Source: a virus. From it: 22,887 nt of DNA. Each line of letters begins with the position of its first letter. The first letter of the stretch is position 1. The notes under the pieces are model-generated. The model saw only the letters and a list, made by a program, of their open reading frames with translations, did not search any database and was not told the origin of the DNA. Below are positions 1,103 to 22,676 of this stretch, in pieces. The stretch lies in the UHGV virus genome UHGV-0306720. One strand, written 5' to 3'. The position numbers and the translations under genes are program-made.

Positions 1103-1104
1103 GC

Positions 1105-2524: not shown

Positions 2525-2527
2525 GAT

Positions 2528-5482: not shown

Positions 5483-5802
5483 TCGTCCTTCTCCTTCACC
5501 CTGCGATTAAAGGCCGCAATAACCTTGTCGCGTGCTTTCTCTGCCCCCATAAAACCGATTGATGCGCCGATAAACGTCACGGCATCTTCAGGAAAACCGA
5601 AGAAGCGCAACGACCCGGCCACGGCCATGGCAAGAACGCCGCACGCCAGCGAGCCCGTTACGGTCTGAATCAGTGTTCGTCCGTCATAAAGACTCATCAG
5701 CGCGGAAATGCTGACCGCCGCGCCTACTGCATACACCGTTGGCAGGTGGTCAAAGAGCCATGCAATAACCTGCTCTGTGATCCCTGTTTGAATGGTGCTC
5801 AC
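5479..5802 (-). CDS. Holin-like membrane protein (start GTG 5802 preferred; ORF track start GTG 5817)
   Basis: Two to three hydrophobic segments and a charged C-terminus (NRRVKEKDE). GGGGAG sits 5 nt before GTG at 5802. Directly upstream of the endolysin. Confidence 0.55.
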   Translation of the reverse strand: MSTIQTGITEQVIAWLFDHLPTVYAVGAAVSISALMSLYDGRTLIQTVTGSLACGVLAMAVAGSLRFFGFPEDAVTFIGASIGFMGAEKARDKVIAAFNRRVKEKDE

Positions 5803-5804
5803 TG

Positions 5805-6005
5805 CTACTCCCCCCACAACTGAATCATTTCTCGTTTCTTCTTCTCCGGCTCCGGCATCTCCACTTCCTGCCCGGCGTCCAGAAATACCTGCTGACAGAG
5901 TCCGGGGTTGGCATCCAGCACCTTTTCGGTGACGCCCTGCGTCGTGCCGTAGTACCGGAAACAGAGCGAATCCACGGTGTCGCCTTCCAGTGCCTTAACT
6001 TTCAT
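5805..6005 (-). CDS. X: Tail protein X-like (LysM-like), 66 aa from ATG at 6005
   Basis: MKVKALEGDTVDSLCFRYYGTTQGVTEKVLDANPGL resembles P2 gpX as recalled; TGATG overlap with the L stop. Confidence 0.7.
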   Translation of the reverse strand: MKVKALEGDTVDSLCFRYYGTTQGVTEKVLDANPGLCQQVFLDAGQEVEMPEPEKKKREMIQLWGE

Positions 6006-6508
6006 CAGCACAACTCCGCAAAGATTCGTGGGCGGCACAGAATGTCAGAGATGGCCCAGCTCACATCACGCCACAAATCCGATGTCTGTATATCCAGTGC
6101 GTCCGCCCTGCGGTCGCCCTTGTCCGTTGTGTCTGCATCACGATAACGCTCCAGAATCAGGGCGCGCGTGGCGGTATAAACCGCATTGCGCCAGTGCCAG
6201 AGATTGACGCTTTCTCCGTTAATTACGGGTGCCGGAACATCGGCCAGCGTCTGATGGCCAGCCGCCTGCTGTTCCTGCTGCCATGCTTCCAGCTCGCGGG
6301 TAACGTGTGCCACAGCCCCGGTGGCAGTATGCAGCAGGCGGGAGGTGGTCACGCGGCCCGGCAGTCGTACCGCCAGACGCAGCTCGCGCAGCACAATATC
6401 CGGCCAGAATGCACCTGCTGAAATGCGAGTGTCGCCATCATCGGTATCGGTGATGTCGTCCTCTGCGGGTCCTGGTTCAGTTCTGGCAACCATACTCATG
6501 GGGTTCAC
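6005..6508 (-). CDS. L: Head completion/stabilisation protein gpL-like
   Basis: 167 aa, position after M as in P2; start GTG 6508 or ATG 6499. Confidence 0.75.
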   Translation of the reverse strand: MNPMSMVARTEPGPAEDDITDTDDGDTRISAGAFWPDIVLRELRLAVRLPGRVTTSRLLHTATGAVAHVTRELEAWQQEQQAAGHQTLADVPAPVINGESVNLWHWRNAVYTATRALILERYRDADTTDKGDRRADALDIQTSDLWRDVSWAISDILCRPRIFAELC

Positions 6509-6511
6509 TCC

Positions 6512-6580
6512 TGAAAAAAATCGGGCGGTGGGTGCGCGGTGTAAACGGTCACGGAGTCAAACCGGAACACCGCGCACGCC
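6512..6580 (-). terminator. Long imperfect hairpin followed by a U7 tract on the minus-strand transcript, between M and L
   Basis: Perfect 11-bp inverted repeat GTGCGCGGTGT (6532-6542) / ACACCGCGCAC (6567-6577), extendable with mismatches. Plus-strand A7 (6514-6520) becomes U7 right after the hairpin on the minus strand. Confidence 0.45.
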
Positions 6581-6601
6581 GCCCGCTGACGGGGTCAGTC
6601 G

Positions 6602-7402
6602 TTAACCGCGCTTCGCCTTCTGCGTCGCGGTGGTTTTTCGTGTTGCAGGCTTCCGCGTTGTCTTTTTACTTTTGCTGCTTTCGTCCTGCGCCTGCTGTGC
6701 GCTGGCGTCTTCTGGTGCGGCTGCGGAATCGGCTTTTTTCAGGGCGCGGGAAAGGGTTGCAATCTCGCGTTTCACACCTGCGTTCGGGTTCAGGTGCATT
6801 GCTTCGCGCAGCAGCTTCAGTGACAGGGCCATGCTGTCCGCATCACTCAGGCCACGGCGGGCAAAGGCGCACGCTTTGCATAATTTGGCGCGCACTTCGT
6901 CCGGCATGTCCTGGTCGGTGACAATCTCCCGGAGGGTGTCCAGTGGTTCGATAAAGGCGGACAAATCCGCGTCGGCATCCGTCCCGGCCTGCGTCAGTAC
7001 CGGATTACAGATTTCTTCGGTCAGTACCGTGGCAGCAGTACGGCCAAAGTTATCCGGCATGATGAGGTTGTGACGGACCACATACGCGCCGATACGCAGC
7101 GCAAGCGGAAGATTGCCACAATCAATCGCCCACACCATCAGCGTGGCAATCACTTCATCCTGCTGCCCGCCGTCAGCCTCCAGCGTTCCCTCAATCCAGC
7201 CGGAAAAATCCGGCAACAACTCTTTTTTGATGGCGGCTTTCGCGCTTCTGGCCTGTACGCCCTTAAGCCGGGCCTGTGCCAGACGCAGACGATACAGCAC
7301 CTCTTCATGTGCGGTACGCGCGGCGTGGTCCACGCCTTCATTCGCCCGGCCTGCGCGCTGTGCCATCACGTTCTGCCAGTGTTGCTGTGCAGGAGTAATC
7401 AT
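6602..7402 (-). CDS. M: Terminase small/endonuclease subunit gpM-like
   Basis: 266 aa with a basic Lys/Thr-rich C-terminal tail, position between N and L; ATG confirmed. Confidence 0.75.
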   Translation of the reverse strand: MITPAQQHWQNVMAQRAGRANEGVDHAARTAHEEVLYRLRLAQARLKGVQARSAKAAIKKELLPDFSGWIEGTLEADGGQQDEVIATLMVWAIDCGNLPLALRIGAYVVRHNLIMPDNFGRTAATVLTEEICNPVLTQAGTDADADLSAFIEPLDTLREIVTDQDMPDEVRAKLCKACAFARRGLSDADSMALSLKLLREAMHLNPNAGVKREIATLSRALKKADSAAAPEDASAQQAQDESSKSKKTTRKPATRKTTATQKAKRG

Positions 7403-7447
7403 TTGTTCTCTCCGTTACTGGCGGGCATGATGCCCGCCGTGAGTTGA

Positions 7448-8500
7448 TTAGCTGTCGGCGAACTTCAGGCCAGTGACCATCGCGCACTTGCCATAGTCTT
7501 CAACGACATAAGCGTCATTGATGGACTGGTAGGTGGCGATGCGGTTGTATTCCGGTTCGTCTTTCATCAGACGACGCATTGAACCTTTCTGCCAGTAAAT
7601 CGACAGGTTGTTGAACGAGGTGATCAGCATCGTTGCATCCGGGAAGAACGGCGCAAGGAACACGCCCAGCCCGCCAATGGTGCGCGATGACAGGATGAGC
7701 TGCCCGGCAAGTAATTCCGCATTGGGATTCTGGCCGCTGATGCTGTTCAGCACGGGCAGACGCAGTGAGTTAAACAGGTTGCGCCCCATAATCACCACGA
7801 GGTCGTCAGCTTCCTTGTGCCATTCATCCAGCAGGGATGAGCGTGCGTCCTGTACCAGTGCATCAGCGTTCGCATACTTACCCGCGTGCGCCACGGTGTT
7901 GTCCATGTTGCGTGAGGTCAACGTCACGTCATTCATAACGCGCTCGCTGGCGTTGGTTCTGATGTGCTTCAGCCACCCCACGTTAACGTCCTGAAGCAGC
8001 TTGTTGGTGCTGAAGTTGGACTCATCCGCGTGAGACGTGCCGTTGAAACCGATCATGATGCGGTCAAGTGCCACCTGCCGGGCAATCTGTGCGCTGATGC
8101 GGGACTGAAAATCAGGGTGTGCCGCCCAGGCATCAAGCTGCGGATATGAAATAAACGTGTCGTAGTTCACCTGTTCGCACTGGTATTTGCGGTTTTTCAG
8201 ATCAACCACGTTATTCGGGTTACGGCGTTTTGTGCCGTCATAACTGGTATTCGTGCGTGCAATTGGCCCGGTGGTGTCCAGGAGGATTTTTTCGCCTTTC
8301 TGGTCGGTCACGCCGATCACGTTAATTCTTTTTGTAAATTCGGTGCTTTCCTTTGAGGCGTTTTCAAAACGCTGCTGCACCGAGGGTTCCACGGTAAATC
8401 GCGATACCAGTGCGGAAACCGGAATATTATTAAGCGACGCCTGCTGCGCCATATAGCAACCCAGCTTGTTGCGGGTAATATCTGACATCACCAGATTCAT
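7448..8500 (-). CDS. N: Major capsid protein gpN-like
   Basis: 350 aa; FTVEPSV and other segments match P2 gpN as recalled; strong SD AAGGAG before the ATG. Confidence 0.9.
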   Translation of the reverse strand: MNLVMSDITRNKLGCYMAQQASLNNIPVSALVSRFTVEPSVQQRFENASKESTEFTKRINVIGVTDQKGEKILLDTTGPIARTNTSYDGTKRRNPNNVVDLKNRKYQCEQVNYDTFISYPQLDAWAAHPDFQSRISAQIARQVALDRIMIGFNGTSHADESNFSTNKLLQDVNVGWLKHIRTNASERVMNDVTLTSRNMDNTVAHAGKYANADALVQDARSSLLDEWHKEADDLVVIMGRNLFNSLRLPVLNSISGQNPNAELLAGQLILSSRTIGGLGVFLAPFFPDATMLITSFNNLSIYWQKGSMRRLMKDEPEYNRIATYQSINDAYVVEDYGKCAMVTGLKFADS

Positions 8501-8523
8501 AAAAAATTTGCTCCTTTGTCTTA

Positions 8524-9360
8524 TCAGAAGTCAGCCAGCTGGTCGGAGGCTGCACCTGTTGCGGTGAACCGGTTCTGCGGATCGCCGTCCTGCGTGCGCA
8601 GTTTTTCCTTCAGTGCTGCCAGCTCTGTGGTCAGTGACGTAATTTTCTGGCGGTCCTGCTGATGGCGGGTTTCCAGCACATTAAAACGGTCGATAATGTC
8701 GGCCTGTGACGTTGCGACGCCTTCCACCGCTTCCTGAATACGGGAAAAACTGGCGTCATCCGCTTTGCGGCCACGGCCAATAATCCCCATTACGCGGTTA
8801 AACCACTGGGTGCCTTCTTCCTGGCGTTGTTCTGCCATTTCGATGATTTCAGACTCGATGGCTTCGGAGATAAGCGGTGCTTCACCCTGGACACTGTTGA
8901 ACGTCATTACCGCCTGACGTTGCTGTGCCGTAAATTTCAGGCGCTCAGTGCCCAGGCTTGCCGGGGTGTCGGTCATCGCCAGCCCGACCAGATAGGCGCG
9001 CCCGTTAACGGAGAACTGCGGGTGCAGTTCGATACTGGAATAGATTTTCTTGCCGTCCGCGACAAGCTGCTTCATGCGCTCGGTCGGTTCGATTTCTGCA
9101 TACAGCGCAGTACGTCCGGCCAGCGGACCTTCCGTAATGTCTTCTGTACTCAGTGCGGTGACATCGCCCATTGCGGAAAATTCGCTTGACGGGCATGGCG
9201 AGAGATAGTGCTCAACGTTCACGCGGGCAGCGTAAACATCCGGGTTGAAGTTCTCGGCGGCTTCACGCAGATGCACCGGACTGATTTCACGGCCATCAAC
9301 AGTTGATCCGGAGACAGCCACGCGAAACTTTTTGCGGGATGTCTTTTTTTCATTAGCCAT
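8524..9360 (-). CDS. O: Capsid scaffolding protein gpO-like
   Basis: 278 aa, acidic with a coiled-coil C-terminal part; first gene of the leftward late operon, divergent from P. Confidence 0.8.
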   Translation of the reverse strand: MANEKKTSRKKFRVAVSGSTVDGREISPVHLREAAENFNPDVYAARVNVEHYLSPCPSSEFSAMGDVTALSTEDITEGPLAGRTALYAEIEPTERMKQLVADGKKIYSSIELHPQFSVNGRAYLVGLAMTDTPASLGTERLKFTAQQRQAVMTFNSVQGEAPLISEAIESEIIEMAEQRQEEGTQWFNRVMGIIGRGRKADDASFSRIQEAVEGVATSQADIIDRFNVLETRHQQDRQKITSLTTELAALKEKLRTQDGDPQNRFTATGAASDQLADF

Positions 9361-9515
9361 AGTTTTTTGCCCCTCTGACTGGTTCTTCAGTCATGATGGC
9401 AAAGCGTAACAGGCTGATACAAAGGGCTTTTGTTGTAAGAAAACGGCCAGAACAGGGGGTTAAGGAGAACGGTTTCGCGCGCGGGTAATCTTCCTGTAAT
9501 TACTCAGGGGGAGCA
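9361..9515. promoter_or_regulatory. Divergent late-promoter region between O and P
   Basis: 155-bp intergenic region between divergently transcribed capsid and terminase operons, as in P2. Exact promoter and activator sites not resolved. Confidence 0.5.
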
Positions 9516-11267
9516 ATGATTCAGGACGCTTTTGTGCGCCAGCGTGCGCGGCAACTTTACTGGCAGGGGTATCCGCCCGCAGAAATATCACGTCTGATGG
9601 GAATAAACCCGAACACGATTTATGCGTGGAAAAAACGCGACCAGTGGGATGAAACACCACCCGTGCAGCGTGTTACGCAGTCCATCGATGCGCGCCTCAT
9701 CCAGCTTACTGAAAAACAGAATAAAACAGGCGGTGACTTTAAGGAAATAGACCTGCTGACCCGGCAGCTTAAAAAGCTGCATGATGGCCAGCCGGATGTG
9801 ATGACCGCAGGAAAGAAAGGCCGGGCGAAAAAACTCAAAAATCATTTCACGCCGGAACAGATTGCCGCACTGCGGGAAAAAATCATCAGCAGGCTGGAGT
9901 GGCATCAGCGGGGCTGGTTTGACTCCCTGACCCTTTGCAGGGAAGCCGGGATACGTAACAGGATGATCCTGAAATCCCGACAGATTGGGGCGACCTGGTA
10001 TTTTGCACAGGAAGCTCTGCTGATGGCGCTGCGTGACGATGTGGCGCAACCTTACCAGCGTAACCAGATTTTTTTGTCTGCGTCGCGTCGTCAGGCGTTC
10101 CAGTTTAAAAGCATTATTCAGAAGGCCGCGGCTGAAGTTGATGTGGAGCTGAAAGGGGGCGATAAAATCATCCTCTCCAACGGCGCAGAGCTGCATTTTC
10201 TCGGCACTTCTGCTGCGTCGGCACAGTCCTATACGGGCAATTTTTATTTTGATGAATTTTTCTGGGTCAGTCGCTTTGCTGAACTGCGCAAGGTGGCTGG
10301 CGCTATGGCAACCCTCAGCGGACTGCGGCGCACCTACTTCTCCACGCCATCCACCGAAACGCACGAGGCATACGCCTACTGGAACGGCGACCGCTGGAAC
10401 GAGAAAAAGGCCTCGCATAAACGCCAGCGTTTTTCTGTGGACTGGAAAACGCTGCATAACGGGCTTATCTGCCCTGACCGGACGTGGCGGCAAATTGTCA
10501 CGCTGGAAGATGTGGTTAATCACGGCTGGAAACACACCGATATCGACGAAATTCGTGATGAAAACACCGAAGACGAGTTCCTCAATCTCTATATGTGTGA
10601 GTTTGTCCGCGAAGGGGAATCGGCATTTAACCTGAATATCCTGATTGGCTGCGGTGTTGACGGATACGACGACTGGAAAGACTGGAAACCTTTTGCTCCC
10701 CGCCCGATGGGGAATCGTCCGGTATGGATTGGGTATGACGCAAACGGCAGTAGTGGCAACGGCGACAGCGGCGCTGTGTCCGTGGTGGTTCCTCCGGCTG
10801 TTCCTGGTGGCCGTTTTCGAACGGTGGAGACGCGACGCGTTCAGGGGCTGGAGTTTGAAGAACAGGCCAGAGTCATTGAAGAGTTCACGTATCGCTACAA
10901 CGTGGAACACATCGGCATTGATGTGACGGGCGGGAACGGGGAGGCTGTTTATCAGATAGTGAAGCGGTTTTTCCCTGCTGCTATTCCGTACACCTTCACG
11001 CTGTCATCAAAACGGTCGCTGGTACTGAAAATGCTGCAAATAATGCGTGCCGGGCGGTGGGAATACGATCGCGCCGAACGCGAGCTGGTCGCGGCCTTTA
11101 ACGCCGTGCGTAAGGTGAAAACACCGGGCGGCTTTATCACTTACGAAACGGACCGAGCGAGGGGGATCAGCCACGGCGACCTTGCGTGGGCAACCATGCT
11201 TGCTGTCATTAACGAACCGATTGGCGGCGAAGGAGAAAACGAGCGTTTCACGGTTATGGAGTTCTGA
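9516..11267 (+). CDS. P: Terminase large (ATPase) subunit gpP-like
   Basis: 583 aa; N-terminal HTH-like segment (YPPAEISRLMGINPNTIYAWKKR); SD GGGGGAG before the ATG; TGATG overlap with Q. Confidence 0.9.
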   Translation: MIQDAFVRQRARQLYWQGYPPAEISRLMGINPNTIYAWKKRDQWDETPPVQRVTQSIDARLIQLTEKQNKTGGDFKEIDLLTRQLKKLHDGQPDVMTAGKKGRAKKLKNHFTPEQIAALREKIISRLEWHQRGWFDSLTLCREAGIRNRMILKSRQIGATWYFAQEALLMALRDDVAQPYQRNQIFLSASRRQAFQFKSIIQKAAAEVDVELKGGDKIILSNGAELHFLGTSAASAQSYTGNFYFDEFFWVSRFAELRKVAGAMATLSGLRRTYFSTPSTETHEAYAYWNGDRWNEKKASHKRQRFSVDWKTLHNGLICPDRTWRQIVTLEDVVNHGWKHTDIDEIRDENTEDEFLNLYMCEFVREGESAFNLNILIGCGVDGYDDWKDWKPFAPRPMGNRPVWIGYDANGSSGNGDSGAVSVVVPPAVPGGRFRTVETRRVQGLEFEEQARVIEEFTYRYNVEHIGIDVTGGNGEAVYQIVKRFFPAAIPYTFTLSSKRSLVLKMLQIMRAGRWEYDRAERELVAAFNAVRKVKTPGGFITYETDRARGISHGDLAWATMLAVINEPIGGEGENERFTVMEF

Positions 11268-12313
11268 TGAGCAGAAAAAATAAAAAAGTGCGCATGAGTT
11301 CACGCATTGATCTCGCTGATGCGCTCAGGAAAGAATCATCGCTCAGTGCATTCACATTTGATGGTCCTTATCGCCTGACCGGGCATGACCTGCTGGACAA
11401 TATGTACTGTGCTGATAACGGGCGGTGGTATGAAACCCCGGTGGACTGGTACGGTCTGGCAAGAGCAGCCCGGCAAACGTCCTGGCATCAGTCTGCGCTT
11501 TACTTTAAGCGCAATGTATTACTCGGTTGCTACATCCCGCACCCGCTGCTTTCCCGGCAGGATTTCTCGGCGCTGGCGCTGGACTGGTTTGTGTTCGGTA
11601 ACGCATTCCTTGAGCTTCGAAGCAATATGCTCGGCGAACCGCTTAAATTACGGCACGCACTGGCGAAATACATGCGACGCGGAAGCGATCTTGAATCATG
11701 GTGGTATGTGCAGGATGGCAAGGACGCGTTCCAGTTTCGCCCTGGCAAAGTGTGCCACCTGATGAATCCGGACATTAACCAGGAAATTTATGGCATGCCG
11801 GAATATCTCGGCGCATTACTCTCGGCCAGCCTGTCTCATTCGGCGGACATGTTCAGAAAACTGTATTACGACAATGGATCCCACGCCGGGTGCATCATCT
11901 ACATCGGTGCAGCGCAGGTAAACCGCGAAAGCATGGACTCCCTGAAAGAAACGTTACAGGGTGCGCGTGGTGGTGGCGCGTTTAAAAACGTGCTCATCCA
12001 TGCGCCCAACGGGGGCAAAGAGGGGGTGCAAATTTTGCCGTTCCAGCAGATCACCGCAAAGGATGAGTTCATGAATGTTAAGGCGGCATCCCGTGATGAT
12101 GTGCTGGCTGCGCACCGCGTTCCGCCGCAACTGATGGGGGCGATGCCGGGCGAAAAAAGTGCGTTTGGTGATGTGGAGAAGGCCGCGCGGGTTTACGCAA
12201 TTAACGAGCTGATGCCCGTCATGGAGGCCATGAAGCACATCAATGACTGGCTTGGCGAAGAGGTGATCCGCTTTAACCCTTACGCACTGTTAGACACCCA
12301 GCCCACATCCTGA
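11267..12313 (+). CDS. Q: Portal protein gpQ-like
   Basis: 348 aa, close to the P2 Q length, coupled to P, last gene before the cos region. Confidence 0.85.
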   Translation: MSRKNKKVRMSSRIDLADALRKESSLSAFTFDGPYRLTGHDLLDNMYCADNGRWYETPVDWYGLARAARQTSWHQSALYFKRNVLLGCYIPHPLLSRQDFSALALDWFVFGNAFLELRSNMLGEPLKLRHALAKYMRRGSDLESWWYVQDGKDAFQFRPGKVCHLMNPDINQEIYGMPEYLGALLSASLSHSADMFRKLYYDNGSHAGCIIYIGAAQVNRESMDSLKETLQGARGGGAFKNVLIHAPNGGKEGVQILPFQQITAKDEFMNVKAASRDDVLAAHRVPPQLMGAMPGEKSAFGDVEKAARVYAINELMPVMEAMKHINDWLGEEVIRFNPYALLDTQPTS

Positions 12314-12770
12314 CGCGCTTCGCTTGTCTGCTGCTTCGCCGGGGCATAAAAAATTTATGCCCCGGCTCTCCAGCTCCTGTATCAGTCAGATAATTTCACG
12401 ACGCTTTCCTGCTGATTGCCATCATCGACAGTCAGACTCTTACGCAATCCCACCGCGTTGACTGCATGTTCTCGCCGTCTCAGTGCGATTTTGACGGCCT
12501 TACCTTTCACCCCATCAAATCAAAAGCCCTCACGTCTTTTTCACGCTCAGCGTGAGAAAGACAGCCATTCTGTTGTGTCGCTGCGACATCGTTCAGGGGA
12601 TGCTATTTACCCCCTGAAACGCGGGCTGTTCCCCCGTCACCTGCGCGCAGAAAAAACGCGTTTTTTTGTGCACGTACGGATCCCTGACGGATCCAGCCAC
12701 CACGCGGGCCGGAAGTACAAAAAGTCGTTCAAAAAAATTGTGCAAACTTGTGCACTATCGTGCAAACAAA
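12314..12770. other. Presumed cos/packaging region (joined cohesive ends); exact cos site not identified
   Basis: Non-coding stretch right after the portal gene where P2 has cos. Perfect 10-bp-arm hairpin at 12341-12363, palindromes at 12534-12562, 12592-12618 and 12649-12668, direct repeats ACGGATCC x2 (12676-12694) and TGTGCA-type repeats (12738-12767). Confidence 0.4.
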
Positions 12771-12792
12771 AAAAGCGCCTTATCGGCGCTTC
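12764..12792 (-). terminator. Rho-independent terminator downstream of the 89-aa ORF
   Basis: AGCGCC-TTATC-GGCGCT hairpin; plus-strand A7 immediately upstream gives a U7 tract after the hairpin on the minus strand. Confidence 0.55.
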
Positions 12793-12799
12793 AAAAGTA

Positions 12800-13069
12800 T
12801 CAATTGTTGCTGTGTATTAATCGCCAACCACGAACATATGCTTCATAGGCATCTCTGTGCCTTACAGTTCCAGCCTGGCTAAACGGAATGTTAGCTAAAA
12901 CTAAATCATTCTGAGCCATAGCGCGTCCTTCAAGCGCATCTTTTATGCCTAGCTCAAAAGCACAGGCAGCGCATTTGTGCCGACCTTCTTGTCCTTGATA
13001 TTCAGGGAGAGACAGAAATGTTGGATTATAACGATGAGGGTTCTTGCAAATACCTGTTTTAGCCCGCAC
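12800..13069 (-). CDS. Hypothetical 89-aa protein with Cys/His cluster (GTG start)
   Basis: ORF in the AT-rich island with its own terminator; motif C-x4-H...H-K-C-A-A-C suggests metal binding. SD-like GAGGT 9 nt before the GTG. No family recognised. Confidence 0.35.
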   Translation of the reverse strand: MRAKTGICKNPHRYNPTFLSLPEYQGQEGRHKCAACAFELGIKDALEGRAMAQNDLVLANIPFSQAGTVRHRDAYEAYVRGWRLIHSNN

Positions 13070-13199
13070 TTTATTTACCTCATAGGAAAAATATGCGTGC
13101 CTTTACAGAGGTGCGTGTAAGCAATAAAATATACGACGCACATTTTGATTTACTTCGGAAGGCACGCATATCAGGTTAAGTGAGTCCGACCGAGTTTTA

Positions 13200-13232
13200 C
13201 GCCCCAATAGTTGCTGCTATTGGGGCGTTTTG
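13200..13232 (+). terminator. Hairpin with 11-bp perfect stem followed by TTTTG
   Basis: CGCCCCAATAG-TTGCTG-CTATTGGGGCG then TTTTG on the plus strand, just downstream of the 28-codon plus-strand ORF. Confidence 0.5.
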
Positions 13233-13433
13233 CATGGACAATGCCGCGCAATTATCTTGTCGCTCACAATGCGAACGATCTTACAAAAAGGCACATTACT
13301 GTCAAGATAATTGATCGTTTTAATCGATAGATAATAGACAATCTATTTGTTTAACAGATCGATTATTGAAGTAAGTGTGCCAAATGGAATGATACTGTCT
13401 CTATAAACGTGAGCATTTTTCGCGCAGATGCTT

Positions 13434-13745
13434 TTACTCAGGAAATAACGCCCGGATATTCCCAGCCATCTGGCTGGTTATCTTAGCCACTGGTGCAGAC
13501 TGTGCTTCAAACTTTTTTGAGCTGATTTGTGTCACAGGTAACATCTCATCATCAGCCCATGCGGCCAGTCGGTAAGCCTCTGCCGGATTCGTCTTCAGAA
13601 GTGCCAGCCCGGCCAGAAAAGCCACGCGTTGGCCGCTTTTGCGGGCTTCTGGTGTAAGGCTGTCCAGCCAAGCGCATGCTTCTCCTTCGTTCTTGACGGC
13701 AGCTGGCTTCAGATAGAAACTTATTCTTCTGGTTGGTGTCGTCAT
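13434..13745 (-). CDS. parR: ParR/StbB-like partition adaptor (103 aa)
   Basis: RRISFYLKPAAVKNEGEACAWLDSLTPEARKSGQRVAFLAGLALL resembles the plasmid R1 ParR N-terminal region as recalled. Begins 4 nt after the parM-like stop with SD AAGGAG. Confidence 0.7.
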   Translation of the reverse strand: MTTPTRRISFYLKPAAVKNEGEACAWLDSLTPEARKSGQRVAFLAGLALLKTNPAEAYRLAAWADDEMLPVTQISSKKFEAQSAPVAKITSQMAGNIRALFPE

Positions 13746-13749
13746 TGGT

Positions 13750-14709
13750 TTACTCCTTGTTCATTGCGTACAGCCCATTAACCAGAGCAAATTGTGGCCC
13801 CCCGTCCGCGATGAAAGTCGCATTAACTCCGCAGGCTTCGCGGATAGCGGGTGCCACAATCTCCGCCCCGCCACCGACAACCATCACCCGCCCGTAACCC
13901 GAAAAAACCGCCAGCGCGCGGATCACGCGTTGTTTCAGTGTTTCTTCCTTTTCACGAATAACCGCCATCAGGCTGGCGTAATGCGCGTCATTGTGGATGT
14001 GCTGGCGCAGCCAGGCTTCATCATGGCGATGTTCGATAATGGTATTGGCGATGTGGTGACTGGTGCGCATACCGTTAGTGGCCATCACCGACAGTACGGC
14101 ATCGGCCATAAGAGAAACGCCTACGTGTGGATCGCAAAACACCTGGCTGATACCTGCCAGTTGCCCCTGAACCTTTGCCACATCCAGCGTGGTTCCGCCC
14201 AAATCCACAATCAACAGGGATTCAAACGGACTCATGTCAGCCAGTGCCTTAAAGCCAGCCGGAATGGATTCAGGCATAACCCGTACGTTACGGATAGTGA
14301 ATGCTTCGCCGTTCTGGTACTCCACCGGGCGCATGACGTTCGCTTTTTTGCGGTTGATGTTGGCCATGTCCGGCTGTGCGTTTGTATCGAAATACTCGCT
14401 CAGTGGCAGGGTGACAACCACATCCACTTCCTGTGGTGTGATGCCTGATTTGACCAGCGCGTGATGAATGGCAATTACATTCACATCGCTGTACTGGTAT
14501 TGCGTGTCGGTCGTCTGGACAAAGCGATCGCTGACCGGATCAAAACCATAGCGCACGCCATCAAGCATGTAGTTCGCGGGCTGCGTGCCACCGAATGGCG
14601 CAGACCATTCCGACTTGAAGCTGTTCGGGCTGATGGCGTTGCGGCGTTCGCCGTTCTCAGTCCATGCCAGCTTGATGTTGGTGGAGCCGTCGTCGATACA
14701 AATTTTCAT
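13750..14709 (-). CDS. parM: Actin-like segregation ATPase, ParM/StbA family (319 aa)
   Basis: MKICIDDGSTNIKLAW, YSDVNVIAIHHAL, VMPESIPAG, LIVDLGGTTLDV and VMVVGGGAEI are the actin-fold motifs and resemble plasmid R1 ParM/StbA along the whole length, as recalled. Confidence 0.85.
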   Translation of the reverse strand: MKICIDDGSTNIKLAWTENGERRNAISPNSFKSEWSAPFGGTQPANYMLDGVRYGFDPVSDRFVQTTDTQYQYSDVNVIAIHHALVKSGITPQEVDVVVTLPLSEYFDTNAQPDMANINRKKANVMRPVEYQNGEAFTIRNVRVMPESIPAGFKALADMSPFESLLIVDLGGTTLDVAKVQGQLAGISQVFCDPHVGVSLMADAVLSVMATNGMRTSHHIANTIIEHRHDEAWLRQHIHNDAHYASLMAVIREKEETLKQRVIRALAVFSGYGRVMVVGGGAEIVAPAIREACGVNATFIADGGPQFALVNGLYAMNKE

Positions 14710-14744
14710 GTCGCTTTTCCTTATGTTGATTAATTAATCGGTTA

Positions 14745-14852
14745 CAGGATTTTTAAATCCCGCTTTTGCCTGTTTTGTGCGCGCTTCATATATCGCGGCG
14801 CGTTTTTTGCTCATTTACGGGATTTGTGAGTCCCGTTTCTGTCTGTTTTTTG
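14745..14852. repeat. Two ~35-bp imperfect direct repeats (27/35 identical), each with an internal dyad, 73 bp apart
   Basis: CAGGATTTTTAAATCCCGCTTTTGCCTGTTTTGTG (14745-14779) versus CGGGATTTGTGAGTCCCGTTTCTGTCTGTTTTTTG (14818-14852). The first lies between the A stop and the parM start; the second lies within the last codons of A. Confidence 0.6.
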
Positions 14853-17608
14853 TTTCCACTGGTCAGGCCACCCCGCAGCAGGTCTGCTTTGCGGCTGGCG
14901 CGTTCAGTGGTTTCACTGATTCTCTGTGCGTGCTCTGCGTCGCGGATGGCGCGCAGCATGTCAGAAAGCACGGTAACGGGTGTTTTCATGGTGTTCTGGT
15001 CCTGCTGAAGTGTGGATGCCAGGCGTGCGGCGGCTTCAGGGTCTGATGCCCCCAGCTGTGCCAGATAGCTGGCGACCGGGTTATGGCGGATCTCCGTGCT
15101 GCTTACGCCATGATTACGGCTCAGGCGCTGCCAGAGCTGCGTGATTCGGCTGTCCGGGCGGGTATCCGGTTTGCGTACAATTTCAAATCCCTGCGGTGCA
15201 ATGATGCTGCCGTCAACGTACAGACTGCCGCCCCGTAACAGGTGCTGCATCTGTTGTTCACCGATATGCAGGCCGAGAGATTCAGCAGACTCCCGCCATT
15301 CTTTAGCGAGTAATTCGTGGTTATCAGGCAAAGGCCGCTGCTGTTTGCGGCTCTGTGTCCAGCTCTGCATTTCATCACTGCTGTTTTTTGCCTGTTTGTC
15401 ACGAAGCGAACGCATCAGCGCCCGGCGTTCGTGCCGTTTCAGTGAGCGCATCCATTCGTTCACGTCAACGCCGTCAGGAAGCTGCGGCCACGGTGCTGGC
15501 CGTTCTTCCGGCTGTTCTGTCCCGTTGTTGTCCGTTTCCTGTACACGGGGACAGTTATTGCCACGAGTCCAAGGGGCGGCAGGGCCGCCCTGAAGGTCAA
15601 AACCATTTTCGCGGGCGCTGTCTTCCGCTTCCGGTTTGCGTCTTACCAGCTTCCAGTTATCCGGATGCGTGCACACACGGGAGGATTCCCCGATGAGTGG
15701 CGACCAGATCCCGTAAATCTGTACGCTCTGTTCGCCGTAATCGTTCAGCTCATCTGCGAGGTCGTAGGCGGTGCGAATCAGGTAGTCTTTGCGTGGAACA
15801 AGTACGCCGCCCTGTTTCTCTATGTAGGTGGCAAAACATCCGGCATCAGCGGCAGCAAGAACCGCATCCATTGCGTCATCCTTCAGCCGTTGCGGGCCTT
15901 CGGGGTTGCGTGCCATCTGGCTGGCAAGGCGACGCAGTTCACGCCACACCTGACGGGAGGGGATACCAAAGAACTGGAACTGGCGGACCCGGTGAAGGCG
16001 CGCCCAGCCGATGGCGCGTTCCACGCTCTCGGCCATTGATTTTCCGGTTTCGTGGTCAACGCGTGGTTTGCCCGTTTTCGGGTCGATGCCATCCACGGCG
16101 CGGCTGTCCAGGTTCTTTCCGATGTAGGTGGCGATGTAGCTGGTTGGCGTGCCTTTTGAGCCGTCGACATACTCCACCTTAAAGCGCGGAGTAATATCAT
16201 TGCCCAGCTCGTGGCGGTCTTCCTGAATGGCAATATCGCGGGTGATGGCCACGATGCTGTCGATTTCTTCCGGATGAGCAAAGACCATCATATGCCAGTG
16301 CACGGTGCCGTCATGGTGAGGCTCCACCGTGCGGATGCCATACCAGCGCAGGCCGTCGCGGTTCAGTTTCTTGCGGACCGCCGCAAAAAACGTGTTAACC
16401 AGGTAATCGCTGGAGTCGCGCATGGTGGCCCCGTTCCATTTGGGGTTCGGATGACCGTTCTCCGTTGTTGCGTGGTATTTTGACGGGCAGGTGACAGTCA
16501 GAAACACCGCTCTGTCGCCACGGGCTTCGGCCAGAAGTTCCAGTCCCTTCATGGTGGCCATCATTTCTGCCTTACGGTGAACCGGGTTACTTACTCCCGC
16601 GTAATACACTGTCTCGAGATCAATCGTGAAGCCGTCTTCGTTTTCCAGTTCGAAGCTCTTCAGGAAGTCGCGGGTTTTCTCGCGCTGTGCGCGAAACTCG
16701 CTTAACGCGTCCTGGCTCAGATAGGGTGATGTTTTTCTGGAAACCAGACAGGCGGCGCGGAGTTGTTCTTCTCTCCACTCGCAACGTAACAGCCACAGTT
16801 TGCGTTTCCACCATTCCGCACAGGTCAGGCGAAGGATTGCGCCCGGCAGCAGCTCCGTGTCCGGTTCGTTCCTCCGGTCTTTGTCTGTTGTCAGTGCGTC
16901 ATAATGTGGAGGCATGGCGTGCAGGTGTAACGCCATGCGGGCCAGCATCTGATACGCCTTCAGCGTTACATCCATGGTCAGTTCGCCATCAGTCGCGCCA
17001 AAGCCATCGCAGAGTTTTTCGAAGGTGCTGCTGAACATCGCCGCCGTCATGGTGGCCAGCGTCTGTATCTGGTGCTTGTTGAGCTGCGGCAGGTAAAGCA
17101 AATCATCCAGGCGTTCGCGTCCGGCAAGGGAGCGATAACCCGGTGTCAGCCAGCGGTGGTCGGTGCGGTCCAGACGTTCGAATATTTTGCGCAGGGTTCC
17201 GCGCGCGTAGCGTTCAGCCTGCCAGCTCTTTTTGCCTTTCCGGCGATCGACTTCCTGTTTTTTGCGCAGGAAGGAGAGGTGGCGAATAAGCGGATCGCGC
17301 AGATAGGACGGCAGCAGGCGCAGCGAGGCCATGGCTTCATCCACCGCGCCGCGTGCCTGTTTTCTGGCGTCTCCTGCCAGTGTGATGGTTTTGTCCTGTT
17401 TTTCCTGTGCATCCAGGCTTTTATTAATCAGGTTGCCCAGCGGCGTGGCGGAGAACGCCGCATCAGCCATTTCCTGGCGGCGCTCGTTCTCTGCCCGGTA
17501 GGCATCCAGCCAGGAGGAAAGCGCAGATTCAGGAACGGGGATCCCCGTTCCTTCACGTCCCACTGCGTGGCGCGGTTGTTGCCAGTCCCTGATGTACTCT
17601 GCCGTCAT
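14786..17608 (-). CDS. A: Replication initiation endonuclease gpA-like (HUH rolling-circle initiator), 940 aa
   Basis: HUH motif in VHWHMMVFAHPEE; large last gene of the early operon as in P2; ATG confirmed. Confidence 0.8.
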   Translation of the reverse strand: MTAEYIRDWQQPRHAVGREGTGIPVPESALSSWLDAYRAENERRQEMADAAFSATPLGNLINKSLDAQEKQDKTITLAGDARKQARGAVDEAMASLRLLPSYLRDPLIRHLSFLRKKQEVDRRKGKKSWQAERYARGTLRKIFERLDRTDHRWLTPGYRSLAGRERLDDLLYLPQLNKHQIQTLATMTAAMFSSTFEKLCDGFGATDGELTMDVTLKAYQMLARMALHLHAMPPHYDALTTDKDRRNEPDTELLPGAILRLTCAEWWKRKLWLLRCEWREEQLRAACLVSRKTSPYLSQDALSEFRAQREKTRDFLKSFELENEDGFTIDLETVYYAGVSNPVHRKAEMMATMKGLELLAEARGDRAVFLTVTCPSKYHATTENGHPNPKWNGATMRDSSDYLVNTFFAAVRKKLNRDGLRWYGIRTVEPHHDGTVHWHMMVFAHPEEIDSIVAITRDIAIQEDRHELGNDITPRFKVEYVDGSKGTPTSYIATYIGKNLDSRAVDGIDPKTGKPRVDHETGKSMAESVERAIGWARLHRVRQFQFFGIPSRQVWRELRRLASQMARNPEGPQRLKDDAMDAVLAAADAGCFATYIEKQGGVLVPRKDYLIRTAYDLADELNDYGEQSVQIYGIWSPLIGESSRVCTHPDNWKLVRRKPEAEDSARENGFDLQGGPAAPWTRGNNCPRVQETDNNGTEQPEERPAPWPQLPDGVDVNEWMRSLKRHERRALMRSLRDKQAKNSSDEMQSWTQSRKQQRPLPDNHELLAKEWRESAESLGLHIGEQQMQHLLRGGSLYVDGSIIAPQGFEIVRKPDTRPDSRITQLWQRLSRNHGVSSTEIRHNPVASYLAQLGASDPEAAARLASTLQQDQNTMKTPVTVLSDMLRAIRDAEHAQRISETTERASRKADLLRGGLTSGNKKQTETGLTNPVNEQKTRRDI

Positions 17609-17614
17609 AGTGAT

Positions 17615-17980
17615 TTACTTCGTCATGCCATTCAGGGTGTCGCGGCAGACGGCAGCCAGCCGCTGAATTTCCAGCACGGTGTCTTCTGTGTCGGCATGGC
17701 GATGTGTGATGCGGATGCTGTCGGCAATCACATCGACAATTGCAGAGGATGGGCGCTGGTAAATGCCAATAACGGACGGGGTGCCACCTTCAATGCGGTA
17801 AAGCCTGTAATTTCCCTCGTGGCTGTCAATCATGTAGCGACCATCAATAACAATCTTTCCGTCAGCGAGCTGCGGTACAGGCAGGGATTTCAGGTACATG
17901 TCATAACGATCACGCACGCGAGCGGCAAGATCACGTTCTGTGTTGAGCAGGTATTCAAGAAAGTCGTTGGCGAGAATCAT
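17615..17980 (-). CDS. Hypothetical early-operon protein (121 aa)
   Basis: Immediately upstream of A, same strand, 6-nt gap; no recognised motif. Confidence 0.5.
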   Translation of the reverse strand: MILANDFLEYLLNTERDLAARVRDRYDMYLKSLPVPQLADGKIVIDGRYMIDSHEGNYRLYRIEGGTPSVIGIYQRPSSAIVDVIADSIRITHRHADTEDTVLEIQRLAAVCRDTLNGMTK

Positions 17981-18052
17981 TGCGGCAATCCTCTTGTTAC
18001 AGATGTGCGAAGGCCTCCCGCCGCAAGGTGCAGGAAAGGCCCGGAACAGTAA

Positions 18053-18283
18053 TTAATGGAGTTTGTTTTGCTGCTGGATGAGCTGCTGAAGCTCGCGCAG
18101 ATCATCCGCCAGATAGCTGAAAACAGAGGCGGAATAGCTGTTCGATAGTGCGTGACTGCGCTCATGCAGCATATTGATGTGCATGATTTGCGCGACGCGG
18201 AATGCGCGGAAAAGTCTGCGGTTGATTTCAGTCTGGATGTGACGACGCGCAGCGTATGCGCGGTGCTGTTTGCGGTTTGCCAT
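18053..18283 (-). CDS. Hypothetical basic early-operon protein (76 aa)
   Basis: ATG preceded by SD AAAGAGG; basic N-terminus; no family recognised. Confidence 0.45.
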   Translation of the reverse strand: MANRKQHRAYAARRHIQTEINRRLFRAFRVAQIMHINMLHERSHALSNSYSASVFSYLADDLRELQQLIQQQNKLH

Positions 18284-18457
18284 GGTGTGGCCTCTTTGCT
18301 AGTAAGTTTTAAAAACTCACCATCCAGAGGTTCCAAGCTCGGGGTGGTGAGACGTACAGGGTTGGAACTACCGGCTAGCAAAGAACCCGGCCCGACCGAA
18401 GTCGGCCCCATACGCCCCACCATAATTCGTGTGCGAAAAAGACGTGGCGATACGGTA

Positions 18458-18488
18458 CGCACAAAAAAACCGCTGGCGCGGTTGTGCG
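18458..18488 (-). terminator. Nested hairpin followed by a U7 tract on the minus strand, inside the early-operon gap
   Basis: CGCACAA...ACCGC-TGGC-GCGGT...TTGTGCG; the plus-strand A7 run becomes U7 after the stem on the minus strand. Confidence 0.4.
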
Positions 18489-18605
18489 CTTTGCTAGTCA
18501 GCGGGGTTCCAATCCCGGCACCCGTTTTATGAGGTGCAGCGGAAATGTAACCTGACTGATTGCGGCATGGCAAGCGGTTTTTTTGTGTGTGCATGTTCTG
18601 GTTTC

Positions 18606-20535: not shown

Positions 20536-20877
20536 TTATAAATCAGCCTGTTTAATAAAACTTTGCCCACGAAGCAGACGATCAACCGTGCGAAGTGCTT
20601 CGTATAATGTGAAATCCTGCCCGAATTGATTGTCGCCGCAGCTCAATGCAAAAATGCGGTTTCCGGTAAACGGATTGCGTGGGCATTTGTGGACCACGAT
20701 TCCAGCTTTCTCAATCAGCCAGGCATGCTCGCCGATTTGTTTTACTGGGTAGCCATCCGGCGTTGCGTGTGTATCACTCAGGCTGTAGCGGATGTTGCTG
20801 CGTGATGCACTGGTAGCGAAACGGTTAGCGTGGCGTTCAGCACCATTACGAAAGCGTGAATTACGTTGCTGTTTCAT
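20536..20877 (-). CDS. Hypothetical early-operon protein (113 aa)
   Basis: Second gene of the early operon after cox; no recognised motif. Confidence 0.5.
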   Translation of the reverse strand: MKQQRNSRFRNGAERHANRFATSASRSNIRYSLSDTHATPDGYPVKQIGEHAWLIEKAGIVVHKCPRNPFTGNRIFALSCGDNQFGQDFTLYEALRTVDRLLRGQSFIKQADL

Positions 20878-20895
20878 ATCAAAACTCCCTGCATC

Positions 20896-21222
20896 TCATG
20901 CAGCAAAATTAAGAAAGCCTAATCCCAAATCTTCCGCCAGCTTCTTGGCTTTCTTAAGCCAGTGATTGCGCCAATCTTTACGCTCAGGAGGAAGCTGTTT
21001 CGTTGCGTCATAGACCATTTCGAGCCACTCATTCCAAAGGATGAGAAGACGGCGCGAACTCCCTTCCTCGCCTAAAACCTCGCGCTCAGTAGTTAGAGGG
21101 ATGAGTCGACGCTCTACCAACTTTCTTACGGCTGATTCGGTCTTACCTGTGCGGCGGGAAAACTCATCGACGGTGATGGGGTCTGGGATCTTAAACAATG
21201 CCCTCAATAGTTCTTCATTCAT
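20896..21222 (-). CDS. cox: Cox-like regulator/excisionase (108 aa from ATG at 21222)
   Basis: First gene of the early operon, divergent from C. ITVDEFSRRTGKTESAVRKLVERRLIPL and the W-x-x-W pattern resemble P2 Cox as recalled. SD GGGAG before the ATG. Confidence 0.6.
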   Translation of the reverse strand: MNEELLRALFKIPDPITVDEFSRRTGKTESAVRKLVERRLIPLTTEREVLGEEGSSRRLLILWNEWLEMVYDATKQLPPERKDWRNHWLKKAKKLAEDLGLGFLNFAA

Positions 21223-21317
21223 GTGATAATCTCCCTGTTTGGGGTATTTCTTGCGACGGATGCCCCAAATCAAACTCATTTGTATAAACATTAATACAGA
21301 CGTTGGAGAATTGCAAC
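21223..21317. promoter_or_regulatory. Lysis-lysogeny switch region (divergent early and repressor promoters, operators)
   Basis: Intergenic region between divergent cox and C; imperfect inverted repeat TTTGGGGTAT...ATGCCCCAAA. Confidence 0.5.
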
Positions 21318-21620
21318 ATGCGTATGACTATTGGAGAGCGCATAAAAATCATGCGTGAAAGCGAGAGACTTACTAGCCTCCCGGATACAGCAAAAATGCT
21401 TGGTTTAAACCGTGATGCTCTGTGGAGATATGAAAGCGGTAAAACTATCCCTAATGCTGAAGTAATTGAGCAAATACTAAACAACCCCAGATTTGAGAAA
21501 TATGCGTTGTGGTTTATGACTGGGAAAATTGCGCCTGAATCCGGGCAGATAGCTCCGGCTCTCGCACACTATGGGCAAGAGCCAACGGACTTACCCCCAT
21601 CCGAAAGGAAAATTGGCTAA
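21318..21620 (+). CDS. C: Immunity repressor C (P2 C-like), about 100 aa
   Basis: KYALWFMTGKIAPESGQIAPALAHYGQE closely matches the P2 C repressor C-terminus as recalled. ORF-track start is a TTG at 21303; ATG at 21318 or 21324 is more likely. Confidence 0.8.
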   Translation: MRMTIGERIKIMRESERLTSLPDTAKMLGLNRDALWRYESGKTIPNAEVIEQILNNPRFEKYALWFMTGKIAPESGQIAPALAHYGQEPTDLPPSERKIG

Positions 21621-21686
21621 CCCTTTATTATTCTTACGTTTTACAAACTGGAAATGTCTTTCCTCGTTTCACCGGAGGGCTTGCCA

Positions 21687-22676
21687 ATGGCAATTAAAGC
21701 GCTCGATGGTGGACGGTATAAAGTGGATGTTAGACCGCGTGGCCGAAGTGGACGTCGGATTCAGCGGATTTTTAAGAAAAAGGCAGATGCAGTGGCCTTT
21801 GAGCGTTATGTTCTCAGCCACATGCACGATAAGGAATGGCTTGAAAAGCCAACAGAGCAACGTCATCTCTCAGATCTGCTTCCGTTATGGTGGGAATTGG
21901 GTGGACGCAATAAGCCATATGCTAACGGCGTTCTAACCAGGTTGAAAAAAATCATCAAAGAAATGAATGATCCAAGGGTTAGCCAGATTAATGCTCGTTT
22001 CATGGCCGCTTATCGAAGCTCCCGTTTATCCTTGGGAGTAAAAGAGTCTACTGTTCGGCGTGATGAGTCGGATCTCGGAGGAATGTTTACACTCCTGGCA
22101 AATGCCGGGGAATTTCACGGAGAAAATCCGCTCCGCGCCCTCCCCTCTTTGAAACGAAAATCACCCGAAATGACGTATCTCACCACGGAAGAAATCGCCA
22201 AATTACTGGATGCAGTAAGCGGTGATGCCCGGCGGATTACGCTACTTTGTCTCAGTACTGGGGCGAGATGGGGAGAAGCGAAAAATCTGCGCGCGGAACA
22301 CATCATCAATAATCGCGTGACGTTTAACAAAACTAAAAACGGAAAAGTTCGAATTATTCCTGTCTCTGATGAAGTTGTTAGTGAGATCAAAACAAAGAAA
22401 TCCGGCCTTTTGTTTGACGTCAATTATGAGGAATATCGCAAGGTGCTTCGCAGTGTTAAGCCAGACCTACCAAAAGGACAGGCTGTACATGTTCTACGCC
22501 ATACCTTTGCTGCTCACTTTATGATTAATGGAGGAAATATACTTACGCTCCAGCGAATTATGGGGCACGCTACGATCCAGCAAACTATGACCTATGCGCA
22601 CCTCGCTCCTGATTTCCTCCAGGATGCAATTTCACTTAATCCGTTAAAAGGAGGCATCCACATTTCATCCACATAA
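21687..22676 (+). CDS. int: Tyrosine integrase (P2 Int-like); ATG 21687 preferred, ORF-track start 21654
   Basis: C-terminal catalytic signature HVLRHTFAAHFMINGGNILTLQRIMGHATIQQTMTYAHLAP (R, H-x-x-R, Y). MAIKALDGGRYKVDVRPRG resembles the P2 Int N-terminus. SD GGAGGG before 21687. Confidence 0.9.
   Translation: MAIKALDGGRYKVDVRPRGRSGRRIQRIFKKKADAVAFERYVLSHMHDKEWLEKPTEQRHLSDLLPLWWELGGRNKPYANGVLTRLKKIIKEMNDPRVSQINARFMAAYRSSRLSLGVKESTVRRDESDLGGMFTLLANAGEFHGENPLRALPSLKRKSPEMTYLTTEEIAKLLDAVSGDARRITLLCLSTGARWGEAKNLRAEHIINNRVTFNKTKNGKVRIIPVSDEVVSEIKTKKSGLLFDVNYEEYRKVLRSVKPDLPKGQAVHVLRHTFAAHFMINGGNILTLQRIMGHATIQQTMTYAHLAPDFLQDAISLNPLKGGIHISST

Follow-up and report, generated by a model that had tools for sequence, protein, structure and literature searches.

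The locus described here raises the question of what a plasmid-type segregation machine could do for a phage that normally resides in the chromosome of its host. The window, by which we mean the whole stretch of DNA that was analysed (virus genome UHGV-0306720, 22,887 nucleotides), is 94-97% identical in this region to Escherichia phage P88 and to other Xuanwuvirus (Peduoviridae) records, and it is a P88-like (Xuanwuvirus) prophage of the P2 type. On its minus strand the replication gene A is followed by two genes, parM (13750-14709) and parR (13434-13745), in which a first-pass annotation made from the letters of the sequence had recognised an actin-like ParM/StbA and ParR/StbB pair; our analysis found both open reading frames (ORFs) exactly at the coordinates given there. 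We lean towards the view that the two genes and a candidate centromere upstream of them would form a complete type II (ParMRC, R1/StbAB) segregation module, co-expressed with gene A, that separates the extrachromosomal circular phage genome after infection or induction. The sequence features allow us to propose with high confidence that this would be a functional module of the ParMRC type; as to when it would act and what the phage would gain from it, our confidence is moderate.

The 319-residue product of parM is a predicted actin-fold ATPase of the R1 ParM/StbA family. It is covered end to end by the Pfam domains StbA_N (residues 1-157, E=1.8e-82) and ParM C-terminal (residues 159-316, E=1.2e-68), and a phmmer search against solved structures retrieved R1 ParM (1mwk) over residues 2-316 with E=2.7e-93, global identity between the two proteins being 47.6%; the full-length resemblance to plasmid R1 ParM/StbA proposed in the first-pass annotation is borne out by this match. 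All four motifs quoted in the first-pass annotation (MKICIDDGSTNIKLAW, DVNVIAIHHAL, LIVDLGGTTLDV and VMVVGGGAEI) are present in the translation. Residue-by-residue alignment with R1 ParM places the same residues in both proteins at IDDGSTNIKL, MPESIPAG, DLGGTTLD and GGGAE, and the phosphate-1 motif (DDGSTNxK), the catalytic glutamate within MPESIPAG, the phosphate-2 motif (DLGGTTLD) and the adenosine motif (GGGAE) are all intact. The protein is assigned to PHROG 691, 'partition protein'. The gene is under strong purifying selection, with a ratio of nonsynonymous to synonymous substitution rates (dN/dS) of 0.03-0.07 against most close relatives and of 0.18 against a nearly identical O157 copy, values for gpA, the product of gene A, being 0.08-0.17 and those of parM equal or lower.

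The second gene encodes a 103-residue putative adaptor whose likeness to the DNA-binding region of ParR had also been suggested before. It matches the Pfam family PF10784 (Plasmid_stab_B, E=9.8e-24), and a profile built from nine ParR homologues matched ParR of pB171 (2jd3, 'StbB protein') over its full length with E=2.8e-14, so that both proteins of the pair find full-length counterparts among solved ParM and ParR structures; the PHROGs family of ParR is likewise labelled 'partition protein'. The coupling of the two co-oriented genes is confirmed by a gap of 4 nt and by a parR ribosome-binding site, AAGGAG, that lies within the final parM codons. Identity to R1 ParR amounts to 28%. Residues R6, F10, Y11, L12, P14, N96 and F101 are invariant in nine homologues from phages, an integrative and conjugative element (ICE) and an integrated plasmid, and R6, F10, L12, P14, N96 and L100 are still so once R1 ParR is added to the alignment. 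What the ParR homologues of phages, ICE and plasmids have in common is an N-terminal strand R(R/K)ISFYLKP (RRISFYLKP in the window) followed by helices, in a predicted ribbon-helix-helix region, which a linker of varying length joins to a C-terminal tail of the form N-x-x-x-L/F that is kept from the phage copies (NIxxLFPE, in the window NIRALFPE) to R1 (NAMKLIN). We take this tail to be the ParM-binding element, as in the R1 ParM-ParR peptide complex (entry 4a62), and predict the same role for the present ParR. At least three parR alleles circulate in E. coli prophages, with amino acid identities of 83% and 54-57% to that of the window; across them ParM is at least 98.7% identical, and the first 24 ParR residues and the tail are unchanged. 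In many genomes, those of O157:H7 included, nucleotide homology to the window begins only at about 13691, positions 13434-13691 being the 3' two-thirds of parR, and therefore the recombination boundary of the variable slot that follows the cassette can fall inside parR.

A partition module in an integrating phage is unusual among sequenced phages: among 50,697 phage records a ParM homologue was detected in 16, namely 14 P88-like records (at least 95% identity) and two of the phage-plasmid D6 (47.8%). The first-pass annotation had correctly placed the cassette in the interval that runs from gene A to the cos/portal side and is occupied in P2 by orf91, tin and old, and had taken it for variable cargo of that position; the latter reading is rejected by linkage counts and by a deeply conserved gene order. 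Homologues of gpA are found in 383 phage records, 14 of which are at least 80% identical to the gpA of the window, and among the matches listed these coincide with the ParM-bearing phage set. When the frequency of the cassette at this position was surveyed in related prophages, it turned out to be present in all 14 sequenced P88-like phages and in some 1300 (1303) of 5426 complete E. coli genomes, or ~24%, where it occupies 1449 chromosomal places and two places on plasmids. The gpA type of the window occurs in 1444 of the same 5426 genomes (58 gpA-matching records reach 60-80% identity only), and about 90% of the matching E. coli loci have parMR along with gpA. The order gpA, zero to two small genes, parM, parR, cargo and portal is kept in P2-type prophages of four other genera, in which ParM identity has fallen to 62% (Plesiomonas and Hafnia), 58% (Serratia) and 54% (Enterobacter ludwigii), and an integrase is present where the locus reaches the prophage end (Plesiomonas). 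These distant relatives were obtained by protein search and contig look-ups, a single-protein scan of genome contigs having given three near-identical loci. What is variable begins beyond parR: the homology break lies at 12765-13433, outside the cassette.

The relationships among the ParM proteins agree with this picture. Neighbour-joining groups the ParMs of E. coli, Hafnia and Plesiomonas in a clade with 100% bootstrap, apart from plasmid ParMs, and among at least 5000 plasmid records no plasmid ParM exceeds 52% identity, except in six records that hold the prophage itself. Homologues at ~50% identity were found in Dickeya and Mangrovibacter, in a conjugative element and an integrated plasmid. 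A single origin of all phage ParMs is not resolved by the tree, as the union with the Serratia/Enterobacter phage clade receives 44% bootstrap, and one or two acquisitions are therefore possible. From these sequence comparisons, parMR is best described as a vertically inherited, lineage-core module of P88-like P2-type phages, tightly linked to the gpA type. The first-pass annotation had also considered that the cassette might prove to be a conserved core component with a known function; the first half of this applies, in that it is a core component of this sublineage. Two records deserve separate mention. A decayed P2-like prophage of E. coli O157:H7 FRIK804 (NZ_CP034384.1, 1744263-1748440) retains intact gpA, parM and parR beside an IS3 pseudogene and stray tail genes, and a 226-kb contig labelled as the Firmicute Vagococcus sp. 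WN89Y (NZ_JBQPOM010000071.1) encodes a ParM that shares 98% identity with its E. coli phage counterpart, a finding that probably reflects enterobacterial contamination of the assembly.

The region upstream of parM offers a candidate for the third component of the module, parC (14742-14852). It consists of two 38-nt direct repeat units, 14742-14779 and 14815-14852 (79% identity and a spacing of 73 in the repeat search), which flank the gene A stop codon and contain one 18-bp dyad each. The proximal dyad, CGGGATTTAAAAATCCTG (14745-14762), a candidate ParR site and one half of the putative parC, extends from -52 to -35 relative to the parM ATG, and the distal dyad, CGGGACTCACAAATCCCG (14818-14835), a second candidate site, lies 73 bp from it within the final gene A codons. 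The consensus CGGGAYTNNNAAATCCYG occurs in the 22.9 kb of the window only at these two sites, a count reached in none of 100 shuffles, and the same search found no further centromere copies elsewhere in the window. The generic pattern GGG-N10-CCC is not rare (three found against 5.2 expected), and therefore we place weight only on the specific consensus and on the conserved position. In seven close relatives the dyad arms are invariant and the centres variable. Further away, Plesiomonas and Hafnia carry GGG-N10-CC(C/T) dyads at -131/-59 and -128/-55 from the ATG, as compared with -125/-52 in the window, so that, at 62% ParM identity and in strongly diverged surroundings, the three lineages have kept a spacing of 72-73 bp; the upstream alignment of the three also contains an invariant ATTAAT ahead of the ribosome-binding site. 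In an R1-type locus that encodes a ParM 99.7% identical to the one crystallised, the R1 iterons ahead of parM have the core AAACCC, to which the half-site AAAnCCC is similar, and the Serratia/Enterobacter clade shows another arrangement upstream of parM with related GGGAAC/GTTCCC half-sites. The position and conservation of the two dyads suggest that they are most likely the ParR sites, and a likely centromere, of the module. Two flanking repeat regions had been singled out in the first-pass annotation as places to look for ParR binding. The one at 14745-14852 is real and corresponds to the two 38-nt units, whereas the other, at 13233-13433, was rejected: it is part of the non-homologous cargo block and contains a promoter-like site directed toward an 89-residue ORF.

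The same repeats could be read in another way, as tandem intrinsic terminators that halt plus-strand (antisense) transcription coming from the cargo slot and not as ParR sites. Positions 14817-14836 scored as terminator-like on the plus strand (an 8-bp stem followed by TTTCTGTCTGTTTTTTG), the antisense fold reaches -10.2 kcal/mol, and in the E. coli lineage each unit reads as a hairpin plus T-run on that strand and could act in this manner. However, the equivalents in Plesiomonas and Hafnia retain only GGG-N10-CCC, with 3-4-bp stems and without the T-run, and yet they keep the position and the 72-73-bp spacing, so that the terminator reading fits the E. coli lineage only. We regard it as improbable that the units are terminators in place of ParR sites, and the two roles are compatible with each other. 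A ATTAATTAATCAA box (14726-14738, minus strand), possibly a -10 element, stands between the proximal dyad and the parM ribosome-binding site AAGGA (14718-14722). The promoter scan called no sigma-70 promoter between or after the dyads, this box included. Promoter candidates picked manually near the dyads were weak and not kept in Plesiomonas, and no promoter is claimed.

Directly upstream of parM and co-oriented with it lies gene A (14786-17608, minus strand), which encodes a 940-residue rolling-circle endonuclease (Phage_GPA, PF05840, E=1.8e-130) that is 30% identical to P2 gpA, aligned over 77-800. Inside the gene, ~0.75 kb from the dyads, we located a P2-ori-like sequence (15551-15580, minus strand) that reads GCCGCCCCTTGGACTCGTGGCAATAACTGT against GCCGCGCCTCGGAGTCCTGTCAATAACTGT around the annotated nick of P2 at 29892, and which occupies the place equivalent to the P2 nick site in the gpA protein alignment; a search with the P2 20-mer allowing up to three mismatches gave no origin match, and the diverged homologue was then found by short-word BLAST. 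Predicted origin, initiator, candidate centromere, motor and adaptor are contiguous, as in a plasmid maintenance region. The gpA of the window is longer than that of P2 (940 against 761 residues), some 140 C-terminal residues being without a P2 counterpart and the final codons overlapping the distal dyad; in related prophages gpA length ranges from 785 to 907 residues. The terminase and portal genes (9516-12313) lie on the other side of the cassette from gene A.

No terminator-like site on the sense strand was listed by the scan for the interval from gene A to parM. With parMR downstream of gene A on the same strand and no such site intervening, the module is most likely made together with the early genes and, because it is apparently read with the early operon, its action can be placed on the extrachromosomal circle that exists after infection or excision. 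P2-type phages replicate by a modified rolling-circle mode into monomeric double-stranded circles, which are the packaging substrate, and each copy would therefore resemble a plasmid with one centromere. In the mechanism that we propose, the module would be produced along with the early (replication) genes, and ParR dimers would use the strand RRISFYLKP of their N-terminal ribbon-helix-helix region to bind the two 18-bp dyads that immediately precede parM; the conserved C-terminal ParR tail would capture the ends of ATP-ParM filaments, and these, on lengthening, would drive paired ParR-bound phage circles apart. Separation of the copies may aid replication and packaging, or it may secure a copy for both daughter cells until integration or lysis. 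A bolder formulation can be put forward tentatively, namely that P88-like ParM builds a spindle on the phage's own circle, either as a 'cytoskeleton' organising rolling-circle replication and packaging of the monomeric circles or in support of a facultative heritable episome beside integration, P88-like phages being then integrative phage-plasmid hybrids with a gpA replicon and a minimal two-dyad centromere.

Several points speak against a segregation module that acts on the extrachromosomal circle after infection or induction. The candidate centromere has two dyads only, compared with ten direct iterons in R1, and its ParR sites are putative; in the E. coli lineage they could, as described, serve as terminators. 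The expression pattern of parMR is purely inferred, the scan having yielded no convincing sigma-70 promoter. The obvious benefit of a partition motor requires cell division during the extrachromosomal state, a situation which a plasmid phase fits better than a short lytic cycle does. In one prophage-derived phage record, 503458, parM is broken (four separate match pieces, with two annotated 'partition protein' coding sequences), and the gene may be dispensable for prophage persistence. The intact parMR of the decayed O157:H7 prophage could mean that the module has a role while integrated. Finally, the literature that we searched contains no experiment on the parMR module, and searches for ParM in connection with P2-like prophages, P88, Xuanwuvirus or CP-933T/Sp13/StbA retrieved no functional study.

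An alternative is a facultative plasmid phase, in which P88-like phages would be maintained over many generations as circles of low copy number, with gpA as their replication protein, ParMRC as their partition system and integration as the other state. Partition at cell division is the canonical task of ParMRC, and the combination that marks a phage-plasmid, P2-type virion genes together with ParMR, is found here. An episomal phase had been raised in the first-pass annotation and is not a new idea: P88 was flagged in a phage-plasmid screen by the joint presence of phage structural/lysis genes and plasmid partition (and replication) genes, and episomal and integrated states were suggested for it (Pfeifer et al. 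2021, PMC7969092). One circular 'plasmid' record of 34,461 bp, pZ1323PEC0009-2 (NZ_CP148288.1), which stands outside the E. coli genome collection used for our counts, consists of a complete P88-like genome, with integrase, Cox and parMR, whose circle closes across the integrase end, and a P2-like phage that lives as a plasmid does exist in KS14 (PMC3091744). Against this, the extrachromosomal low-copy residence typical of type II partition systems is not what the genomes show, since complete E. coli genomes carry the cassette at 1451 places, 1449 of them on the chromosome, and since the window, like every related record with the immunity end in view, encodes an integrase. KS14 runs on RepB and ParA and not on gpA and ParM, and pZ1323PEC0009-2 could be either a true episome or the replicative form that an active prophage gives on excision. 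A different explanation applies to the other 'plasmid' records examined: a 26.7-kb one from Shigella boydii is a linear contig of a decayed prophage, and the 228-kb conjugative IncC KPC plasmid pC-Ec2-KPC (NZ_MK439959.1) carries a rearranged P88-like segment bounded by IS26 that includes gpA-parM-parR, by which the phage partition module would sit on a real plasmid. A prolonged plasmid phase is in our opinion rather unlikely, if conceivable.

Of lower standing still is the idea that the module serves lysogenic conversion while integrated, ParR and ParM acting on the chromosomal centromere or on incoming DNA in incompatibility, superinfection exclusion or defence. The position matches the P2 tin/old region, the decayed O157:H7 prophage has kept parMR intact beside its IS3 element, and the coexistence of at least three parR alleles with ParM at least 98.7% identical is a pattern that incompatibility pressure could yield. 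The DNA-reading strand of ParR and the dyads are nevertheless the same in all alleles, so specificity is not diversified; ParR is 28% identical to its R1 counterpart; and the cassette is not variable and, in contrast to tin and old, runs in the direction of the early operon. Defence in particular, which the first-pass annotation had contemplated, was rejected, given that neither ParM nor ParR matches any PADLOC family at E<=0.01, and we know of no ParM-based defence system. We consider a role in the lysogen doubtful to the point of giving it little credit, and we would hardly credit at all the proposal that parMR is an inert leftover from an old recombination between phage and plasmid, retained through its linkage to gene A: it has in its favour the lack of a known function and the one record with a broken parM, and it is contradicted by the selection data (parM dN/dS of 0.03-0.07), by intact frames, catalytic motifs and ParR-ParM interface tail across lineages at 54-62% identity and by the conservation of the upstream dyads. 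A segregation module made with gene A and working on the phage circle stays our preferred account.

The surroundings of the cassette show where the variability of this prophage resides. The window aligns with P88 over 226-12764 and 13434-18587, and homology to both P88 and pZ1323PEC0009-2 ends at 12764 and restarts at 13434, which delimits a variable cargo slot (12765-13433) that adjoins the cassette and lies outside it. The slot holds an 89-residue ORF (12800-13069, minus strand) assigned to phrog_3941, of function not known to PHROGs, that has no Pfam match and no PADLOC family at E<=0.01, and which is equipped with promoter-like and terminator-like sites of its own: a sigma-70-like promoter site (13305->13278, minus strand), placed between the arms of an 11-bp inverted repeat (13249-13259 / 13303-13313), points at the ORF, and a terminator-like site is found at 12792->12772 (minus strand). 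A short plus-strand RNA is possible in the slot, where there are a promoter-like site (13102-13130) and a hairpin (13199-13228) that runs into TTTTG. A query including 13100-13433 found matches covering at least 80% of it in 657 complete E. coli genomes. Relatives carry other contents there, such as small ORFs (P88), HicAB (a Serratia prophage) or a KAP NTPase (an Enterobacter prophage).

At the other end the window contains Cox, the repressor-side region and a tyrosine integrase, and a near-identical copy in an E. coli chromosome adjoins dmsABC. The Cox/repressor/integrase end (20857-22887) has no nucleotide match to P88 or pZ1323PEC0009-2, the rest being ~88-97% identical; the immunity/integration module has been swapped, a case of mosaicism. 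Within the early region, Rfam models identified a C4 antisense RNA (18340-18427, minus strand, 82.7 bits) and isrK (18463-18537, minus strand, 69.1 bits) in tandem just upstream of a 76-residue ORF (18053-18283, minus strand) that corresponds to the 'derepression protein' gp14 of P88, and the three look like an RNA-controlled antirepressor module within the early operon; a 205-residue 'Ash' ORF call (17977-18594) overlaps both RNAs. For cos, the best match to the P2 19-mer was 13/19 at 12623-12641, and no cos site is claimed.

The module itself is already known, being annotated in P88 and in thousands of genomes (RefSeq, PHROGs), and the episomal idea is in print. Our analysis adds that it is a deep vertical core of a P2-like sublineage, that the variable slot begins after parR, that two dyads form a candidate centromere with a predicted origin nearby and that parM is constrained. 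An R1-family actin-like segregation motor is thus a regular constituent of an integrating phage lineage present in ~24% of complete E. coli genomes, O157:H7 remnants included, and its role, once worked out, would reveal the use that a normally integrating phage makes of a plasmid partition machine. Since P88 is inducible and engineerable in E. coli, the question is accessible to experiment. For annotation, the lesson is that the variable, defence-type slot of P88-like prophages begins after parR and not after gene A, and that a chromosomal E. coli gene called 'plasmid segregation protein' is usually the sign of a P88-like prophage rather than of an integrated plasmid.

Among known systems, ParMRC (StbA/StbB) of the plasmids R1 and NR1 is the structural reference. 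Both proteins belong over their full length to the same families, with 48% identity and identical nucleotide-binding motifs in ParM, the same Pfam family and tail motif in ParR, the parM-parR order and repeats upstream of parM. The R1 system, in contrast, serves a low-copy plasmid and not an integrating P2-like phage; its ParR has 116-117 residues instead of 103; and its parC comprises two blocks of five 11-bp direct iterons, whereas the candidate sites described here are two 18-bp dyads 73 bp apart, a compact arrangement that lends itself to comparison with the ten-iteron parC. The ParM lineage is also distinct, no plasmid ParM exceeding 52% identity. Essentially the same module is found in phage P88 as gp17/gp18 (Xuanwuvirus; NC_026014), with a 99.1% identical ParM and the same flanks from gene A through parR, RefSeq naming the first product 'plasmid segregation protein ParM' and the second 'partition protein' in P88, with 'plasmid partitioning/stability family protein' also in use; the window differs from P88 in its parR allele (83% amino acid identity), in the cargo downstream of parR and in the immunity/integrase module. 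The P2 tin/old region occupies the same map interval, from gene A to cos, with orf91, tin and old in it. Those genes are variable, lie on the strand opposite to A with their own mapped starts, are expressed in the lysogen and exclude other phages, whereas parMR is conserved, co-oriented with A and without similarity to defence proteins.

The plasmid prophages P1/D6, N15 and KS14 likewise are phages with plasmid partition genes, the StbA-type ParM of D6 being 47.8% identical to that of the window, and KS14, P2-like in its virion genes, lives as a plasmid without chromosomal integration by means of RepB and ParA (PMC3091744). They differ from the present element in their plasmid lifestyle and in their replicons, the P88-like phages having an integrase and an overwhelmingly chromosomal state. 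With respect to function, the closest analogues would be two systems of integrated elements. In the prophage CGP3 of Corynebacterium, AlpA and AlpC are induced early and are needed if the circular phage DNA is to replicate efficiently, the adaptor AlpA binding upstream of its own operon (PMC4446434). The AlpC/AlpA/alpS system thus unites an actin-like filament former and a DNA-binding adaptor within an integrated prophage and may be the best functional analogue, in an actinobacterial host and a different phage type; the comparison of AlpC with ParM made here is one of function. In the SXT/R391 integrative elements, the ParM-type srpMRC stabilises the excised form (PMC4489591), so that a segregation system conserved in a chromosomally integrated family with rolling-circle-type relaxase replication acts on a transient excised circle, much as parMR might do for the P88-like phages, even though SXT/R391 is a conjugative element, SrpM is distant from R1 ParM and SrpR lacks a recognisable ParR domain.

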